In this document: piece after piece, positions 1-58,920 of the stretch | Layout of the letters: the number at the start of each line of letters is the position of its first letter | Numbering within the stretch: the stretch's first letter is position 1 | Assembly (NCBI RefSeq): GCF_003018255.1 | Contig: NZ_CP027440.1 | Direction: 5' to 3' (one strand) | From: Escherichia coli | GTDB taxonomy: Bacteria; Pseudomonadota; Gammaproteobacteria; Enterobacterales; Enterobacteriaceae | DNA: 64,000 nt | The notes under the pieces: generated by a model | What the model saw: only the letters and a program-made list of their open reading frames with translations | What the model was told of the DNA's origin: nothing | Databases searched by the model: none | Translations under genes and position numbers: made by a program

Positions 1-495
1 AAAACCCAGTTTGAAAAAGAAAAACTGGCTCAGGATCGCATTAAAACGAAAAATCAACTTGATGCAAACATTCAGCGCCTCAATTATTCACTCGACATTG
101 CCAACGCGGCAGGAATTAAAAAGCCCGTTTACAGTAATGGTCAGGCCGTTAAAGATGACCCCGATTTCTCTATTTCTCTCGGCGCAGACGGTATTGAACG
201 CAAACTGGAAATTGAAAAAGCGGTTACTGACGTTGCGGAACTGAACGGTGAATTACGTAATCGTCAGTATCTTGTTGAGCAGTTAACAAAAGCAAATATC
301 AACGATGTGAATTTTACGCCGTTTAAATATCAGTTAAGCCCGTCATTGCCAGTGAAAAAAGACGGTCCGGGTAAGGCGATTATTGTGATCCTTTCTGCGA
401 TGATCGGCGGGATGGTGGCTTGTGGTGGCGTGCTGTTGCGCTATGCGATGGCATCCAGAAAACAGGATGCCATGATAGCAGACCACTTAGTTTAA
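1..495 (+). CDS. fepE: FepE (Wzz-like chain-length regulator family), 3' portion only; 5' end lies upstream of the window
   Basis: Frame 1 is open from nt 1 to the stop at 493-495; C-terminal peptide ...ILSAMIGGMVACGGVLLRYAMASRKQDAMIADHLV with terminal TM segment; sits upstream of fepC as in the ent/fep cluster. Confidence 0.85.
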   Translation, partial: KTQFEKEKLAQDRIKTKNQLDANIQRLNYSLDIANAAGIKKPVYSNGQAVKDDPDFSISLGADGIERKLEIEKAVTDVAELNGELRNRQYLVEQLTKANINDVNFTPFKYQLSPSLPVKKDGPGKAIIVILSAMIGGMVACGGVLLRYAMASRKQDAMIADHLV

Positions 496-5618: not shown

Positions 5619-5761
5619 AAGTCAGCTTCCTGTTATTAATGAAGTTAATGCTTCTCATTTTCATTGTAACCACAACCAGATGCAACCCCGAGTTGCAGAT
5701 TGCGTTACCTCAAGAGTTGACATAGTGCGCGTTTGCTTTTAGGTTAGCGACCGAAAATATA

Positions 5762-10815: not shown

Positions 10816-12921
10816 ATGAACAAATCAGGGAAATACCTCGTCTGGACAGTGCTCTCTGTAATGGGAGCATTTGCTCTGGGATACATTGCTTTAAATCGTG
10901 GGGAACAGATCAACGCGCTGTGGATTGTGGTGGCGTCGGTCTGTATCTATCTGATCGCTTACCGTTTTTATGGGCTGTATATCGCCAAAAATGTGCTGGC
11001 GGTTGACCCGACGCGTATGACGCCAGCGGTGCGCCATAACGACGGGCTGGACTATGTGCCGACGGACAAAAAAGTGCTGTTCGGTCACCATTTTGCGGCC
11101 ATTGCCGGAGCAGGTCCGTTGGTTGGGCCGGTACTGGCGGCGCAAATGGGTTACCTGCCAGGGATGATCTGGCTGCTCGCTGGGGTGGTTCTCGCCGGTG
11201 CGGTGCAGGATTTCATGGTGCTGTTTGTTTCTACGCGCCGCGATGGTCGCTCGCTGGGTGAGCTGGTCAAAGAAGAGATGGGGCCAACCGCCGGGGTGAT
11301 AGCGCTGGTGGCCTGCTTTATGATCATGGTCATTATCCTTGCCGTGCTGGCGATGATCGTGGTGAAAGCTCTGACCCATAGCCCGTGGGGAACGTATACC
11401 GTTGCGTTCACTATTCCGCTGGCGCTGTTTATGGGGATCTACCTGCGCTATCTGCGTCCGGGGCGTATTGGCGAAGTGTCGGTGATTGGCCTGGTGTTCC
11501 TGATTTTCGCCATTATCTCTGGCGGCTGGGTGGCAGAAAGTCCGACCTGGGCACCGTACTTTGACTTTACCGACGTGCAGCTGACCTGGATGCTGGTGGG
11601 TTACGGTTTTGTGGCGGCGGTGCTGCCGGTGTGGCTGCTGCTGGCTCCGCGTGACTACCTCTCAACCTTCCTGAAAATCGGGACTATCGTCGGTCTGGCG
11701 GTGGGCATTTTGATTATGCGCCCGACGCTGACCATGCCGGCACTGACCAAATTTGTTGATGGCACTGGCCCGGTATGGACCGGTAACCTGTTCCCGTTCC
11801 TGTTTATCACCATCGCCTGTGGCGCGGTGTCTGGCTTCCATGCACTGATCTCTTCCGGCACTACACCGAAGATGCTGGCGAACGAAGGGCAGGCGTGCTT
11901 TATCGGCTACGGTGGGATGTTGATGGAATCCTTCGTGGCGATTATGGCGCTGGTTTCCGCCTGTATCATCGATCCGGGTGTGTACTTCGCCATGAACAGC
12001 CCGATGGCGGTGCTGGCTCCGGCAGGGACGGCGGATGTGGTTGCTTCTGCCGCGCAGGTGGTGAGTAGCTGGGGCTTTGCGATTACCCCGGATACGCTAA
12101 ACCAGATTGCCAGCGAAGTGGGTGAACAGTCGATCATTTCCCGTGCGGGCGGTGCGCCGACCCTGGCGGTGGGGATGGCCTACATTCTGCACGGTGCGCT
12201 GGGCGGCATGATGGATGTGGCGTTCTGGTATCACTTCGCCATTCTGTTTGAAGCACTGTTTATTCTGACGGCGGTGGATGCAGGTACGCGTGCTGCGCGC
12301 TTTATGTTGCAGGATCTGCTGGGCGTGGTGTCTCCGGGCCTGAAACGGACCGATTCACTGCCTGCTAACCTGCTGGCAACGGCGCTGTGCGTGCTGGCGT
12401 GGGGCTACTTCCTGCATCAGGGCGTGGTCGATCCGCTGGGCGGTATTAACACCTTGTGGCCGCTGTTTGGTATTGCCAACCAGATGCTGGCAGGGATGGC
12501 GCTGATGCTCTGTGCTGTGGTGCTGTTCAAAATGAAACGTCAACGTTACGCCTGGGTGGCGCTGGTACCAACGGCCTGGCTGCTGATTTGTACCCTGACC
12601 GCAGGCTGGCAGAAAGCGTTTAGCCCGGATGCGAAAGTCGGCTTCCTGGCGATTGCTAACAAGTTCCAGGCAATGATCGACAGCGGCAATATTCCATCGC
12701 AGTATACTGAGTCACAGCTGGCGCAACTGGTGTTCAACAACCGTCTTGATGCCGGGTTAACCATCTTCTTTATGGTGGTCGTGGTGGTTCTGGCACTGTT
12801 CTCGATTAAGACGGCACTGGCGGCATTGAAAGAGCCGAAGCCAACGGCGAAAGAAACGCCATATGAGCCAATGCCGGAAAATGTCGAGGAGATCGTGGCG
12901 CAGGCAAAAGGCGCGCACTAA
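10816..12921 (+). CDS. cstA: Carbon starvation protein A (pyruvate/peptide transporter)
   Basis: 701-aa polytopic membrane ORF; matches recalled CstA. Confidence 0.94.
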   Translation: MNKSGKYLVWTVLSVMGAFALGYIALNRGEQINALWIVVASVCIYLIAYRFYGLYIAKNVLAVDPTRMTPAVRHNDGLDYVPTDKKVLFGHHFAAIAGAGPLVGPVLAAQMGYLPGMIWLLAGVVLAGAVQDFMVLFVSTRRDGRSLGELVKEEMGPTAGVIALVACFMIMVIILAVLAMIVVKALTHSPWGTYTVAFTIPLALFMGIYLRYLRPGRIGEVSVIGLVFLIFAIISGGWVAESPTWAPYFDFTDVQLTWMLVGYGFVAAVLPVWLLLAPRDYLSTFLKIGTIVGLAVGILIMRPTLTMPALTKFVDGTGPVWTGNLFPFLFITIACGAVSGFHALISSGTTPKMLANEGQACFIGYGGMLMESFVAIMALVSACIIDPGVYFAMNSPMAVLAPAGTADVVASAAQVVSSWGFAITPDTLNQIASEVGEQSIISRAGGAPTLAVGMAYILHGALGGMMDVAFWYHFAILFEALFILTAVDAGTRAARFMLQDLLGVVSPGLKRTDSLPANLLATALCVLAWGYFLHQGVVDPLGGINTLWPLFGIANQMLAGMALMLCAVVLFKMKRQRYAWVALVPTAWLLICTLTAGWQKAFSPDAKVGFLAIANKFQAMIDSGNIPSQYTESQLAQLVFNNRLDAGLTIFFMVVVVVLALFSIKTALAALKEPKPTAKETPYEPMPENVEEIVAQAKGAH

Positions 12922-12928
12922 AGTCAGA

Positions 12929-12971
12929 GTGAGGGGGGAATGTTGGCATAGTGCCGAGGGTTCCCCCTCAC
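12929..12971. repeat. GC-rich imperfect palindrome directly after the cstA stop
   Basis: GTGAGGGGGGAA ... 20 nt ... TTCCCCCTCAC, followed by a second G/C-tract hairpin (ccctctccccgatggggcgagggg); no T-run, so not a canonical terminator. Confidence 0.5.
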
Positions 12972-13025
12972 CCTAACCCTCTCCCCGATGGGGCGAGGGG
13001 ACTGACCGAGCGCGTTGATAGCATT

Positions 13026-13060
13026 TGTAGGCCGGATAAAGCGTTCACGCCGCATCCGGC
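13026..13060. repeat. REP (repetitive extragenic palindromic) element
   Basis: tgtaGGCCGGATAAAGCGTTCACGCCGCATCCGGCa in the cstA-ybdD spacer; matches the enterobacterial REP consensus GCCGGATGCGGCGTGAACGCnTTATCCGGCCTAC in reverse orientation. Confidence 0.75.
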
Positions 13061-13093
13061 ACTCTTTCAGCAACATGGTTAGCGGAGGCCAAG

Positions 13094-13291
13094 ATGTTTG
13101 ATTCACTGGCAAAAGCCGGAAAATATTTAGGTCAGGCGGCGAAGCTGATGATTGGTATGCCTGATTACGACAACTATGTCGAACATATGCGGGTTAACCA
13201 TCCCGATCAAACGCCGATGACCTACGAAGAGTTTTTCCGTGAGCGGCAGGACGCGCGCTACGGTGGAAAAGGCGGCGCGCGCTGCTGCTAA
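13094..13291 (+). CDS. ybdD: Small CstA-associated protein (DUF466 family)
   Basis: 65-aa [41 protein letters not shown]... downstream of cstA. Confidence 0.85.
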
Positions 13292-13300
13292 ATTGGTACG

Positions 13301-14389
13301 TCAGGCTTGAAACGATTCCACTTTTTCGAACGCTGCACGTAACGTATCTGGTGTCAGCGTGACCGGCAGGTAATGAATGGATTCCACCGGACGTAAGGTG
13401 TGGGCAATCACTTTGTCGATCTCCGCCTGATTATTGATATCCACTTCCAGCTCCGCCAGCGTAGTCGGCAGATGAAAACGCTGATACGCCTCTGTTAATT
13501 GCGCCAGCACATCATCCTGACCCAGCAAGGCGCTTTGCACCAGAATTCCGTAGGCGACTTTGGTGCCGTGGAGAAACTTCTCGGTTTGCGGCAAAACGGT
13601 CAGACCGTTATGCACGGCATGGGCCGCCGCCACACGCGTAAAACGATCGCCCAGACCACCGACCATCCCACCACCAGCAATAATAGCATCCACCACATCG
13701 CAAAATGATTGCGTTAACTGTTGTTTTTGCTGATCGCTCAGCGCCTGTTCGCTACTGTTTAACAAGACGTCGCGAATGGCCTGCGCATTATTGATCCCCA
13801 GCCGCACGGTTAGCGGCAACGTTTCTGGTTGCGGAGCCAGCACCACCGCTTCATACCATTTCGCCAGCGTGTCACCGATCCCCGCCAGCAGATATTCTTG
13901 CGGCGCATTGAGGATAATCTCTGGCTCCACCAGCACCATAAAATTGGCGTCGTCGAAAATCTCATAATGCAGCGCCTGTCCGGCATCGTTATACCAGACG
14001 GAGAGCGGTGTCCAGGCGGCGCAGGTGGCGGCGATCGTCGGAACGGCAACAAACGGCAGACCGAGACGGCGGGCGAGGGCTTTCGCGGTGTCGAGCAGTG
14101 CGCCGCCGCCGACGCCAATCACCACGCTGCGATCGTCACCGGACTCAGCCGCCAGTTGTTGTACATCGCTTTCGCTGCAATGGCCGCGAAACAAAATATG
14201 CTTTGCCCCTGGCAGTTCAAACGCTGGCGGAAGTTTTGTTTGCGCCGCAGCAATGGCGCGTTCGCCGTAGATCCACACCGCGCGAGAAAGTTGTTCATCA
14301 GTGAAAAAATCGTGCAGGTGATTGAAACTTCCGGGATGTGAAAAGTAGTTAGCCGGGCCGACGACCACGCGGATAGGATTGTGAGGCAT
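13301..14389 (-). CDS. ybdH: Iron-containing (glycerol-dehydrogenase-like) alcohol/hydroxycarboxylate dehydrogenase
   Basis: 362-aa ORF with GGG nucleotide-binding motif (VIGVGGGALLD); convergent with ybdD, 9-nt spacer. Confidence 0.9.
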   Translation of the reverse strand: MPHNPIRVVVGPANYFSHPGSFNHLHDFFTDEQLSRAVWIYGERAIAAAQTKLPPAFELPGAKHILFRGHCSESDVQQLAAESGDDRSVVIGVGGGALLDTAKALARRLGLPFVAVPTIAATCAAWTPLSVWYNDAGQALHYEIFDDANFMVLVEPEIILNAPQEYLLAGIGDTLAKWYEAVVLAPQPETLPLTVRLGINNAQAIRDVLLNSSEQALSDQQKQQLTQSFCDVVDAIIAGGGMVGGLGDRFTRVAAAHAVHNGLTVLPQTEKFLHGTKVAYGILVQSALLGQDDVLAQLTEAYQRFHLPTTLAELEVDINNQAEIDKVIAHTLRPVESIHYLPVTLTPDTLRAAFEKVESFQA

Positions 14390-19482: not shown

Positions 19483-19699
19483 TAATTTGTCCTTTTCAGT
19501 CAGTGCAAAAGTCGAGTAAAAGGCATAACCTATCACTGTCATAGGTAAGAGCTTAGATCAGGTGATTGCCCTTTGTTTATGAGGGTGTTGTAATCCATGT
19601 CGTTGTTGCATTTGTAAGGGCAACACCTCAGCCTGCAGGCAGGCGCTGAAGATACCAAAGGGTAGTTCAGATTACACGGTCACCTGGAAAGGGGGCCAT

Positions 19700-19853
19700 T
19701 TTACTTTTTATCGCCGCTGGCGGTGCAAAGTTCACAAAGTTGTCTTACGAAGGTTGTAAGGTAAAACTTATCGATTTGATAATGGAAACGCATTAGCCGA
19801 ATCGGCAAAAATTGGTTACCTTACATCTCATCGAAAACACGGAGGAAGTATAG
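19700..19853. promoter_or_regulatory. ahpC promoter region, expected site of OxyR control (exact operator not resolved)
   Basis: Position upstream of ahpC; ahpCF is a known OxyR regulon member; I could not pin an OxyR tetranucleotide array by eye, so only the region is given. Confidence 0.3.
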
Positions 19854-23469: not shown

Positions 23470-23698
23470 TTTTACTCCATGTCGTCGGTACTGCGAGTGT
23501 CGCAGATAAACATACCCAAAAGAAAACCCTCACCGTCAGGCGGCGAGGGTTTAACTCACATGATGATACTGACTGTTGCTCACTCTTTGAAGTGATTTGC
23601 GTCACATTCAGGGAATTCCTCAATGTAGCGCATTATGTATAAATCTTAATCGTCATGGTTTATGGAAGACGAATTAGCGTGTTTTGTAAATCAGAGGA

Positions 23699-57842: not shown

Positions 57843-57855
57843 AAATCTACTCCAG

Positions 57856-58011
57856 AAAAAAGAGGGTAGCAGCGTTAACTGCTACCCTCGAAGATTGTTA
57901 CCCAGCGTATTGCGGTTTTCAGGCCCGATGGGGAACGACCACCAGGCGTATAGTCTGTCCGTGCTACGTAACAATCGAGAGGGCTGGAATTTCCGCCCCT
58001 GGTTCTTGTAA
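57856..58011 (-). ncRNA. sroC: SroC-like sRNA derived from the gltI-gltJ spacer
   Basis: 169-nt gltI-gltJ spacer ends, on the minus strand, in an 11-bp GC stem (57862-57872 / 57879-57889) followed by a U6 run; SroC is known to be processed from this spacer; 5' end not determinable here. Confidence 0.5.
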
Positions 58012-58920
58012 TTAGTTCAGTGCCTTGTCATTCGGTTCTTTGAACAGTGCTTTCATTTCGTCTGACAGTTCGAAATTCATGTTCAGGTTTTTCGGCGGAA
58101 TTGGATTTTTGAACCACTTATCAAACCATTTTTCCGCTTCACCGGAGGTCTGCACCTGAGCGATGGTATCATCCATCAGCTTTTTGAACTGCGGATCGTC
58201 TTTACGCAACATGCAACCATAGGCTTCCTGAGACTGCGGCTTGCCGACGATTTCCCAGTTGTCTGGTTTCTTCGCTTTCGCACGTTCACCGGCCAGCAGA
58301 GCATCATCCATCATAAAGGCAACGGCACGACCGCTTTCCAGGGTACGGAAAGAGTCACCGTGATCTTTGGCGCTGATGATGCGCATATTCATTTTTTGCT
58401 CTTCATTCAGTTTGTTGAGCAAAACTTCAGAGGTGGTGCCGGAAGTGACGACTACGGCTTTGCCTTTCAGGTCGGCAAAATCTTTGATATCGCCGCCCTT
58501 TTTGGTCAGCAGGCGCGTACCGACCACGAAAATAGTGTCAGAGAAAGCCGCCTGTTTTTGGCGTTCGGCATTGTTGGTGGTAGAACCGCATTCAAAATCG
58601 AAAGTGCCGTTTTGCAGCAGTGGAATACGGTTTTGTGAGGTGATCGGAATCAATTTCACCTGTAAGTCTGGTTTGTTGAGTTTCTTTTTCACTGCTTCAA
58701 CAATGGCGTTGGAGTAATCCTGCGAGTAGCCCACCACTTTTTGCTGATTGTCGTAATAAGAGAAAGGTACTGAAGATTCACGGTGACCGACGACAATCAC
58801 GCCGTTTTTGGCGATTTTGTCCAGCGTACTGCCTGCTGCCGGGGCGGCGTCATCTGCCTGTGCCAGTCCTGCGGAAAGCGCCAGGGCCAGGATTGCTGTG
58901 GCAGGTTTACGTAATTGCAT
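58012..58920 (-). CDS. gltI: Periplasmic glutamate/aspartate binding protein
   Basis: 302-aa product from MQLRKPATAILALALSAGLAQA (signal peptide); track ORF extends 25 codons upstream through the 5' UTR. Confidence 0.94.
   Translation of the reverse strand: MQLRKPATAILALALSAGLAQADDAAPAAGSTLDKIAKNGVIVVGHRESSVPFSYYDNQQKVVGYSQDYSNAIVEAVKKKLNKPDLQVKLIPITSQNRIPLLQNGTFDFECGSTTNNAERQKQAAFSDTIFVVGTRLLTKKGGDIKDFADLKGKAVVVTSGTTSEVLLNKLNEEQKMNMRIISAKDHGDSFRTLESGRAVAFMMDDALLAGERAKAKKPDNWEIVGKPQSQEAYGCMLRKDDPQFKKLMDDTIAQVQTSGEAEKWFDKWFKNPIPPKNLNMNFELSDEMKALFKEPNDKALN

Follow-up and report, generated by a model that had tools for sequence, protein, structure and literature searches.

The cstA-ybdD spacer and its predicted structures

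The window, that is the whole stretch of 64,000 nt analysed here, belongs to an Escherichia coli chromosome (contig NZ_CP027440.1) and contains the ent genes, cstA, ybdD, hcxA/ybdH and ybdL. The region of interest is the spacer between the stop codon of cstA (12921) and the start of ybdD (13094), for which an initial annotation of the window had given a length of 172 nt, a figure borne out by the coordinates of the two ORFs. The features of the locus are the following:

10816..12921, + strand: cstA coding sequence, 701 aa, pyruvate/peptide transporter, stop codon TAA at 12919-12921 (ORF list and RefSeq annotation of matching genomes)
12926..12974, + strand: hairpin 1, starting 7 nt 3′ of the cstA stop (fold and allele alignments)
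12960..13014, − strand (G-rich consensus strand): BoxC element (PIT, TMECO type A, HPG1), about 55 bp by family homology (TMECO consensus match)
12977..12999, + strand: hairpin 2, the BoxC core palindrome, CCCTCTCCCC-GAT-GGGGCGAGGG (fold and pattern search)
13010, + strand: equivalent of the RNA 3′ end at MG1655 632098(+), after ...GGGGCGAGGGGACTGACCGAG, placed by sequence identity
13027..13060, − strand: single REP element of the Y type, GCCGGATGCGGCGTGAACGCTTTATCCGGCCTAC (consensus match and fold)
13084..13088, + strand: ybdD Shine-Dalgarno motif GGAGG, 5 nt before the ATG, in an unstructured stretch and kept in all Escherichia alleles
13094..13291, + strand: ybdD coding sequence, 65 aa, PF04328 / YbdD-YjiX family (ORF list and RefSeq annotation)
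14389 to 13301, − strand: hcxA, convergent with ybdD, from which it is separated by a gap of only 9 nt without a terminator

Folded as the + strand RNA, the whole spacer reaches −77.8 kcal/mol (z = −3.6). Folding had been proposed in the initial annotation as a check on its reading of the spacer, and it yielded three strong hairpins, of −30.5, −17.2 and −16.1 kcal/mol. In hairpin 1, the outer stem pairs a G-tract at 12929-12939 with a C-tract at 12961-12971 over 11 bp, including one G·U; the G/C palindrome of about 11 bp that had been described at this place is thus real, except that its loop measures 21 nt rather than 20 and is itself structured, holding a 6-bp hairpin of its own (12943-12948 / 12952-12957). 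The complete 49-nt hairpin 1 unit (12926-12974; −30.5 kcal/mol, z = −5.0) was not matched by any of 200 shuffled sequences. The second G/C hairpin of the initial annotation was likewise recovered by folding, at 12977-12999 (hairpin 2; −17.2 kcal/mol, z = −3.3), and a pattern search gave 0 expected occurrences by chance. The third hairpin is that of the REP element (−16.1 kcal/mol, z = −2.7). On the 3′ side the three stems are followed by CCTAAC, ACTGAC and ACTCTTTC, respectively; that is, none shows the U-run expected of an intrinsic terminator, as had been stated earlier, and a consensus scan of positions 12700-13500 found 0 terminator-like sites, i.e. a stem followed by a T-run.

No sigma-70-like promoter was found by consensus scan in 12700-13500 either. 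On reading the sequence, a TTGATA hexamer at 13015-13020 was considered as the mark of a ybdD promoter within the spacer and rejected, as it is not accompanied by an acceptable −10 box at 16-18 nt. A 43-aa ORF starting with GTG (12951-13082) was also rejected as a gene; it crosses both the BoxC element and the REP, and is wrecked by indels in other alleles. Scanning the spacer against Rfam gave no family at its gathering score, and the sub-threshold matches to mir-423, antizyme and HDV are chance matches due to the GC palindromes.

A local hairpin fused to a BoxC element and followed by a Y-type REP

The spacer consists of a local hairpin found throughout Escherichia just past the cstA stop codon, fused to one BoxC element, and then of a Y-type REP. 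The BoxC repeat described in the 1990s is the same as the PIT element of Hoyne and Maher (2000/2002) and as the TMECO motif, according to Holder et al. (2015; PMC4666352), whose consensus is made up of three 9-nt blocks, CCCTCNCCC-N3-6-GGGNGAGGG-N3-GGGNGAGGG. The window contains a single exact match to this consensus, CCCTCGCCCCATCGGGGAGAGGGTTAGGGTGAGGG at 12965-12999(−), with 0 expected in shuffled sequences. TMECOs are typed by their second loop (TTA in type A, CCG in type B), and the loop of the window copy reads TTA, making it a type A element. Furthermore, its 21-nt core, GGGAGAGGGTTAGGGTGAGGG, is the core of HPG1, the G-quadruplex/hairpin motif of Kaplan et al. (2016; PMC5100583), and Table 1 of that paper lists HPG1 no. 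19 at cstA/ybdD, MG1655 632058(−). The identity of the BoxC element at this locus is therefore already known, since its K-12 orthologue has been catalogued. The K-12 copy is absent from the 23-member K-12 table of Holder et al. because a single C-to-T change breaks the third TMECO block.

To delimit the element, the spacer copy was compared with nine other K-12 type A copies, from eight other MG1655 loci. Homology extends from TTCCCC to the tail GGGGACyGnyCGAGC, corresponding to about 12960-13014 in the window, with flanks in common with the hrpB, lldD, ygfF, alx, zntA, adk, fabI and fepB copies of MG1655, and the resulting length of about 55 bp fits the 56 bp quoted for BoxC (PMC2267715). A search of 5,426 complete E. 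coli genomes at E ≤ 1e-3 recovered the 81-nt BoxC region (12926-13006) in 5,399 of them, with a median of 14 and a maximum of 25 places in each, which identifies it as a dispersed repeat. A ubiquitous repeat was among the findings that the initial annotation had itself named as speaking against its reading, and the dispersed BoxC/PIT/TMECO family is such a repeat; a view of the palindromes as a ybdD element specific to this locus is not supported. The window copy is a regular family member in its exact consensus, TTA second loop, flanks of about 55 bp, intergenic location between two coding sequences, multi-copy nature and presence or absence depending on the strain. What sets it apart from the family is a fusion, on the 5′ side, with a G-tract arm that is local and older: the first C-block of BoxC serves at once as the 3′ arm of hairpin 1 and so closes the 49-nt hairpin. 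The 5′ arm, GTGAGGGGGG, has the part that falls to the last G-block of the type B partner in the inverted BoxC pairs located at hrpB-mrcB, ygfF-gcvP and alx-sstT in K-12. The fused hairpin thus looks like the central hairpin of type B/type A inverted pairs at other K-12 loci, with the difference that a complete left partner is missing. The core of hairpin 1 is present in all Escherichia alleles examined, including those of E. albertii and E. whittamii; covariation was uninformative, with 0 compensatory pairs and only G-C to G-U changes among 12 Escherichia sequences.

According to Holder et al., Hoyne and Maher's tests revealed neither promoter nor terminator activity for PIT/BoxC, and no function has ever been assigned to the repeat (PMC4666352). 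The folds computed here cover Watson-Crick pairing. Oligonucleotides of the consensus G-rich strand do form structures in vitro, either an intrastrand triplex (PMC4666352) or a G-quadruplex/hairpin (PMC5100583), and the window copy matches the motif. The element might then act at the DNA level, with its G-rich (−) strand switching between a triplex or G-quadruplex and a hairpin or duplex, and so regulate transcription or promote rearrangement; the rearrangement of the spacer between strains is in line with the instability reported at TMECO sites. However, DMS footprinting in vivo did not reveal a triplex, and the double-stranded form is an ordinary duplex (PMC4666352). Moreover, the K-12 copy is still at the same place although its third G-block is mutated, and the G-rich strand is the template strand of cstA. 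The cstA mRNA therefore carries the C-rich strand, which can form plain hairpins only, and neither a quadruplex nor a triplex can arise in the cstA-ybdD mRNA. Altogether, a role based on such DNA structures appears improbable to us.

The REP element at 13027-13060(−) matches 33 of the 34 specified positions of the Y-type consensus, which we take to be the imperfect palindrome GCCKGATGCGRCGY-N5-YCTTATCMGGCCTAC, with 0 such matches expected by chance. REPs are a family with hundreds of extragenic copies per genome; of the 5,426 E. coli genomes, 5,425 contain at least 40 places that match a 43-nt query taken around the REP, and the REP recognised in the initial annotation is well confirmed. In the clusters known as BIMEs, at least two REPs alternate in orientation and are joined by conserved linkers; no second REP was found within the spacer or nearby, so the present element is a single unit. 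The one meaningful sub-threshold Rfam match is to naRNA4, a family derived from REPs; it is partial and scores 32.2 bits, the gathering score being 59.5 (E = 0.0013). The naRNA4 model represents a pair of REPs, and the spacer has just one. The element thus resembles other REPs in its consensus, its imperfect palindrome, its copy number and its location in a transcribed spacer downstream of a gene, and differs from them in being single, outside any BIME, and in lacking an RNA 3′ end at the REP in the published MG1655 data.

Variation of the spacer among strains and species

A 772-nt query covering the end of cstA, the spacer, ybdD and the end of hcxA matched 5,419 of 5,426 E. coli genomes over varied spans, and alignment of representatives defined four allele classes:

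Class 1: spacer of 172, 181 or 182 nt with hairpin 1, BoxC and REP (window, O157:H7, MG1655)
Class 2: spacer of 142 or 153 nt with BoxC, without REP
Class 3: spacer of 127 nt with hairpin 1 and REP, without the 3′ part of BoxC
Class 4: spacer of 112 nt with neither BoxC nor REP (e.g. Nissle 1917)

Class 1 is the most frequent, with about 68% (3,693 of 5,426 genomes; 27 of 40 evenly spaced rows), while about 10% of the genomes have one element only and about 22% neither BoxC nor REP. The arrangement of class 3 is also that of E. albertii, E. whittamii and Escherichia sp. MOD1. In class 4, a shorter hairpin 1 is accompanied by a second hairpin, GCCCTC-TTAATTCAG-GAGGGC followed by ATTTGTATT, and this second hairpin is homologous in position to that of Citrobacter and Salmonella described below. 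Smaller differences exist as well: GAATGTTGGC is duplicated in the hairpin 1 loop of K-12 and O157. In MG1655 the loop duplication measures 10 nt, and several substitutions further separate this allele from that of the window, one of them turning a C of the hairpin 1 3′ arm into T. B2-type alleles retain the BoxC-tail-like CCGAGCGTGTTGAT, which is missing in E. albertii, E. whittamii and Escherichia sp. MOD1; this remnant suggests that BoxC may have been deleted within Escherichia.

The coming and going of BoxC and REP between strains indicates that the two elements are dispensable passengers and do not constitute a dedicated regulator of ybdD. The main rival to the interpretation favoured below goes further and holds that they are neutral or selfish passengers, which landed in a tolerant site or were copied into it by recombination. 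Expression of cstA and ybdD would then not be measurably affected, and the weak RNA 3′ end in the spacer would be an incidental decay intermediate. In its favour, the presence/absence polymorphism goes along with an identical YbdD protein (WP_000460431.1) under six non-K-12 E. coli alleles that were fetched (MG1655 YbdD is annotated under another accession). The same kind of turnover is seen between fepB and entC, where MG1655 has a 186-bp BoxC pair that is missing from the window, in agreement with the TMECO counts of 1 to 29 among E. coli strains and the high variability around TMECO sites reported by Holder et al. (PMC4666352), who also saw no preference of the elements for a class of gene or a position and no regulatory activity. 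These observations have to be weighed against the conservation of hairpins in other species and against the published transcript data, both presented below, and we consider strict neutrality possible, though doubtful.

The polymorphism also bears on the strongest version of the initial reading, namely that the nested palindromes form a locus-specific cis-regulator tuning ybdD translation. The structures would lie within the 5′ UTR of ybdD on a read-through transcript, and some hairpin is conserved at this position. On the other hand, the sequence is that of a dispersed repeat, and about 22-32% of E. coli genomes lack it. Furthermore, the ybdD ribosome-binding region (13061-13110) is unstructured, with a fold z-score of +0.9, and 23 nt separate the Shine-Dalgarno motif from the end of the nearest upstream hairpin, that of the REP, so nothing points to translational control of ybdD. 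We therefore regard this possibility as very improbable.

For comparison with other species, 80 loci were retrieved on the basis of YbdD, with one genome per species, including 73 non-Escherichia species that have both genes. In these 73 species the cstA-ybdD spacer is usually 47-63 nt long, and 70 of them, that is all those with a spacer of at least 47 nt, have a hairpin of −16 kcal/mol or stronger; the median fold z-score of the whole spacer is −3.3, and 86% of the values lie below −2. No hairpin occurs in the three species with spacers of 14-20 nt, showing that a hairpin is not obligatory between cstA and ybdD. The hairpin sequences are unrelated between lineages: they are of the CCCTCTCC/GGAGAGGG types in Citrobacter, Salmonella and Kosakonia, REP-like (GCCGGGTGGCGC...GCGCTTACCCGGC) in Enterobacter, Lelliottia and Leclercia, and of the AACCCGGCC types in Kluyvera, and Atlantibacter has clear terminators such as ACTCCCCGGC...GCCGGGGAGTTTTT. 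In the paralogous pair btsT-yjiX of MG1655, the 49-nt spacer contains a terminator-like hairpin, AGCCCCGC-TTCG-GCGGGGCT, followed by TTGTTCTT. All these hairpins share with those of the window their position in the gap between the transporter gene and the PF04328 gene, their equal strength and their GC-rich composition. They differ in being single, 20-45 nt long and often followed by a T-run, which gives them the look of terminators, whereas the window spacer has three U-less structures made of repeats. That 70 of 73 other species, and the paralogous pair as well, have kept a strong hairpin here speaks against neutral passengers.

BoxC itself also recurs. An exact TMECO was found in the cstA-ybdD spacer of 11 of the 73 non-Escherichia species, singly or as inverted pairs (in Enterobacter, Leclercia, Lelliottia, Cedecea, Phytobacter, Pluralibacter and Pseudocitrobacter), and the BoxC core hairpin, CCCTCNCCC-N3-6-GGGNGAGGG, in that of 20 of the 73, with neither TMECO nor core hairpin outside the spacer in the approximately 3 kb fetched per locus. 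The published density of at most 143 TMECO copies per genome (PMC4666352) predicts a chance occupancy of about 1-4% for any given spacer, a comparison in which the species are non-independent and the expectation derives from published densities rather than from the genomes' own counts. The occurrence of exact TMECOs in the same spacer again speaks against neutrality. A more far-reaching proposal would be that the gap between a CstA-type transporter gene and its PF04328 partner is selected for a strong RNA stem-loop setting the ratio of the two products, and that BoxC, together with REP, has been recruited there repeatedly; we put this forward as a speculation that we think unlikely as it stands.

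Transcript ends and the possible role of the spacer

In the Term-seq data of Adams et al. (2021; PMC7815308) for MG1655, whose spacer allele differs from that of the window, there is one + strand 3′ end within the spacer, at 632098, seen in LB at OD600 2.0 (stationary phase) only. By coordinate mapping this end lies 10-11 nt 3′ of hairpin 2, in the BoxC tail; that is, it falls where a block of exonucleases by hairpin 2 would place it, which speaks against purely neutral passengers. It is a weak end, with 1,686 reads as compared with 10^4-10^6 for strong ends, and no 3′ end is reported after the REP. Using cells treated or not with bicyclomycin, the same study mapped a + strand Rho termination region at 632836(+), about 450 nt past the ybdD stop (score 8.4, p = 1e-17). 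This location of + strand Rho termination, only past ybdD, is consistent with read-through of cstA transcription into ybdD. On the other hand, RegulonDB, as cited in PMC5100583, lists cstA and ybdD as separate single-gene units.

The − strand has to be considered too. Transcripts reading through from hcxA, antisense to ybdD, could be ended or stabilised at the REP and BoxC hairpins, given that ybdD-hcxA has been described as a convergent excludon (PMC12288877), that the whole spacer folds better as the − strand (−79.0 kcal/mol, z = −5.3), and that a Rho region at 631994(−) is located just after the − strand crossing of REP and BoxC (PMC7815308). The Rho signal at the latter position is weak, however (score 4.5, p = 8e-6), and no − strand 3′ end is reported in the spacer by the MG1655 Term-seq data. 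In addition, a palindrome within the 3′ end of ybdD (13245-13289; −23.2 kcal/mol) is nearer to hcxA and would be the first to protect such transcripts. A service to the opposite strand seems improbable, and this reading, like those invoking DNA structures or translational control of ybdD, is less likely than both the neutral-passenger reading and the one developed in the following paragraph.

The spacer is pieced together from intergenic repeats of kinds already known in enterobacteria, and we think it probable that these act as U-less RNA barriers to exonucleases. Dar and Sorek (2018; PMC6061677) found that Rho-terminated E. coli transcripts are trimmed by PNPase and RNase II back to stem-loops that lack a U-tract, REPs being among them; cstA and ybdD have no entries in the supplements of the 2018 PLoS Genetics paper by Dar. 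The cstA-ybdD structures resemble these protective stem-loops in being stable and U-less, in having Rho termination further downstream and in the 3′ end located a few nt past a stem. They differ in that their protective role is putative, that they are internal to a likely two-gene transcript rather than placed after the last gene, and that the 3′ end is weak. By this scheme, the cstA transcript, carrying the C-rich BoxC strand, would fold into three consecutive stable stem-loops without U-tracts, through which RNA polymerase would read into ybdD to be stopped by Rho only beyond that gene. Exonucleases working in the 3′-to-5′ direction would then trim the RNA back to the stem-loops and leave a protected cstA 3′ end just past the BoxC hairpin, which could uncouple the mRNA levels of cstA and ybdD. 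REPs are classic mRNA stabilisers, e.g. at malE-malF, and a barrier role in the present spacer would be an instance of the generic job of such REP-type stabiliser hairpins. The BoxC and REP structures may thereby have taken over from a simple intercistronic hairpin ancestral to the gene pair; in most of the other Enterobacteriaceae, and at btsT-yjiX, a simple and often terminator-like hairpin may do the same job. Hairpin 1, which begins 7 nt past the cstA stop, might in addition interfere with the termination of CstA translation, by analogy with the REPs within about 15 nt of stop codons reported by Liang and Deutscher. Both read-through into ybdD and a function in mRNA stability are plausible. 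The initial annotation had suggested that the structures may modulate either mRNA stability or translation of the small downstream gene; the first of these fits the MG1655 3′ end at 632098, and nothing points to the second, the ybdD ribosome-binding region being unstructured.

The structures of the cstA-ybdD spacer are thus real and at the same time ordinary, being polymorphic known repeats. As discoveries they have little value, given that descriptions of the two repeat families go back to the 1980s-90s and that the K-12 BoxC copy had already been tabulated. The result is of use for annotation, in that the spacer should be labelled BoxC plus REP and not as a candidate riboregulator, and in that the differences in its length among strains (112 to 182 nt) reflect repeat turnover. 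The four natural E. coli alleles also make up a ready series for studying the effects of BoxC and REP on the decay of a two-gene mRNA. If the repeated recruitment of BoxC to this gap were true, it would represent the first demonstrable function of BoxC, or else mean that BoxC was born from, or homes to, terminator-like hairpins. The wider interest lies in the persistence of a strong hairpin, and in the recurrence of BoxC-type hairpins, between a transporter gene and its small partner across the Enterobacteriaceae.

Presence and absence of BoxC elements

An exact match to the BoxC (TMECO) motif, as a single copy or as inverted pairs, was found in the cstA-ybdD spacer of 11 of the 73 non-Escherichia species that carry both genes (comparison loci L018, L021, L038, L041, L047, L060, L064, L067, L068, L073 and L074). 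In Leclercia and Enterobacter, the BoxC element beside a REP-like hairpin is present or absent between close relatives. Within the window, the fepB-entC intergenic region is a second case, after the cstA-ybdD spacer, of BoxC presence and absence. Comparison with MG1655 revealed that a 186-bp segment is missing in the window strain at about 5640-5650; in MG1655 this segment contains an inverted BoxC/TMECO pair, composed of a type A and a degenerate type B element. The Rfam scan of the window returned four matches at or above the gathering score:

19616-19709, plus strand: STnc70 sRNA
23515-23623, minus strand: rnk leader
36602-37050, plus strand: cspA-type thermoregulator
57854-58016, minus strand: sroC sRNA

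Allelic differences in the cstA-ybdD spacer

Allele alignment revealed a 10-nt tandem duplication in the loop of hairpin 1, the structure just past the cstA stop codon. K-12 and O157:H7, like some further alleles, have this duplication; the window lacks it:

MG1655 locus 2518-2537, versus window 12938-12948: 10-nt tandem duplication, GAATGTTGGC

The 3′ arm of the K-12 hairpin 1 also carries a C-to-T change, with which pairing in the plus-strand RNA survives only as G·U. A small ORF extending across the repeats was considered as a gene:

12951-13082, plus strand: 43-aa ORF with a GTG start, spanning BoxC and REP

This ORF is most likely spurious; indels break it in other E. coli alleles.

The paralogous pair and the ybdD-hcxA junction

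In MG1655, the spacer of the paralogous btsT-yjiX pair contains a terminator-like hairpin, AGCCCCGC-TTCG-GCGGGGCT, followed by TTGTTCTT:

MG1655 btsT-yjiX locus 81-129, minus strand: 49-nt spacer with the terminator-like hairpin

The gene-hairpin-small gene layout is therefore common to cstA-ybdD and btsT-yjiX. Separately, a YbdD with 98% identity to that of E. coli was found on a contig of 465 nt that bears the label Streptomyces sp. DH24, almost certainly an enterobacterial contamination of that assembly.

A strong GC palindrome lies inside the 3′ end of ybdD, ending 2 nt short of the last nucleotide of the stop codon:

13245-13289, plus strand: GC palindrome GACGCGCGC...GCGCGCGCTGC, -23.2 kcal/mol

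The convergent ybdD and hcxA genes, published as an excludon (PMC12288877), are separated by a gap of 9 nt without a terminator, and the palindrome could therefore act as a bidirectional protective stem-loop common to both transcripts.
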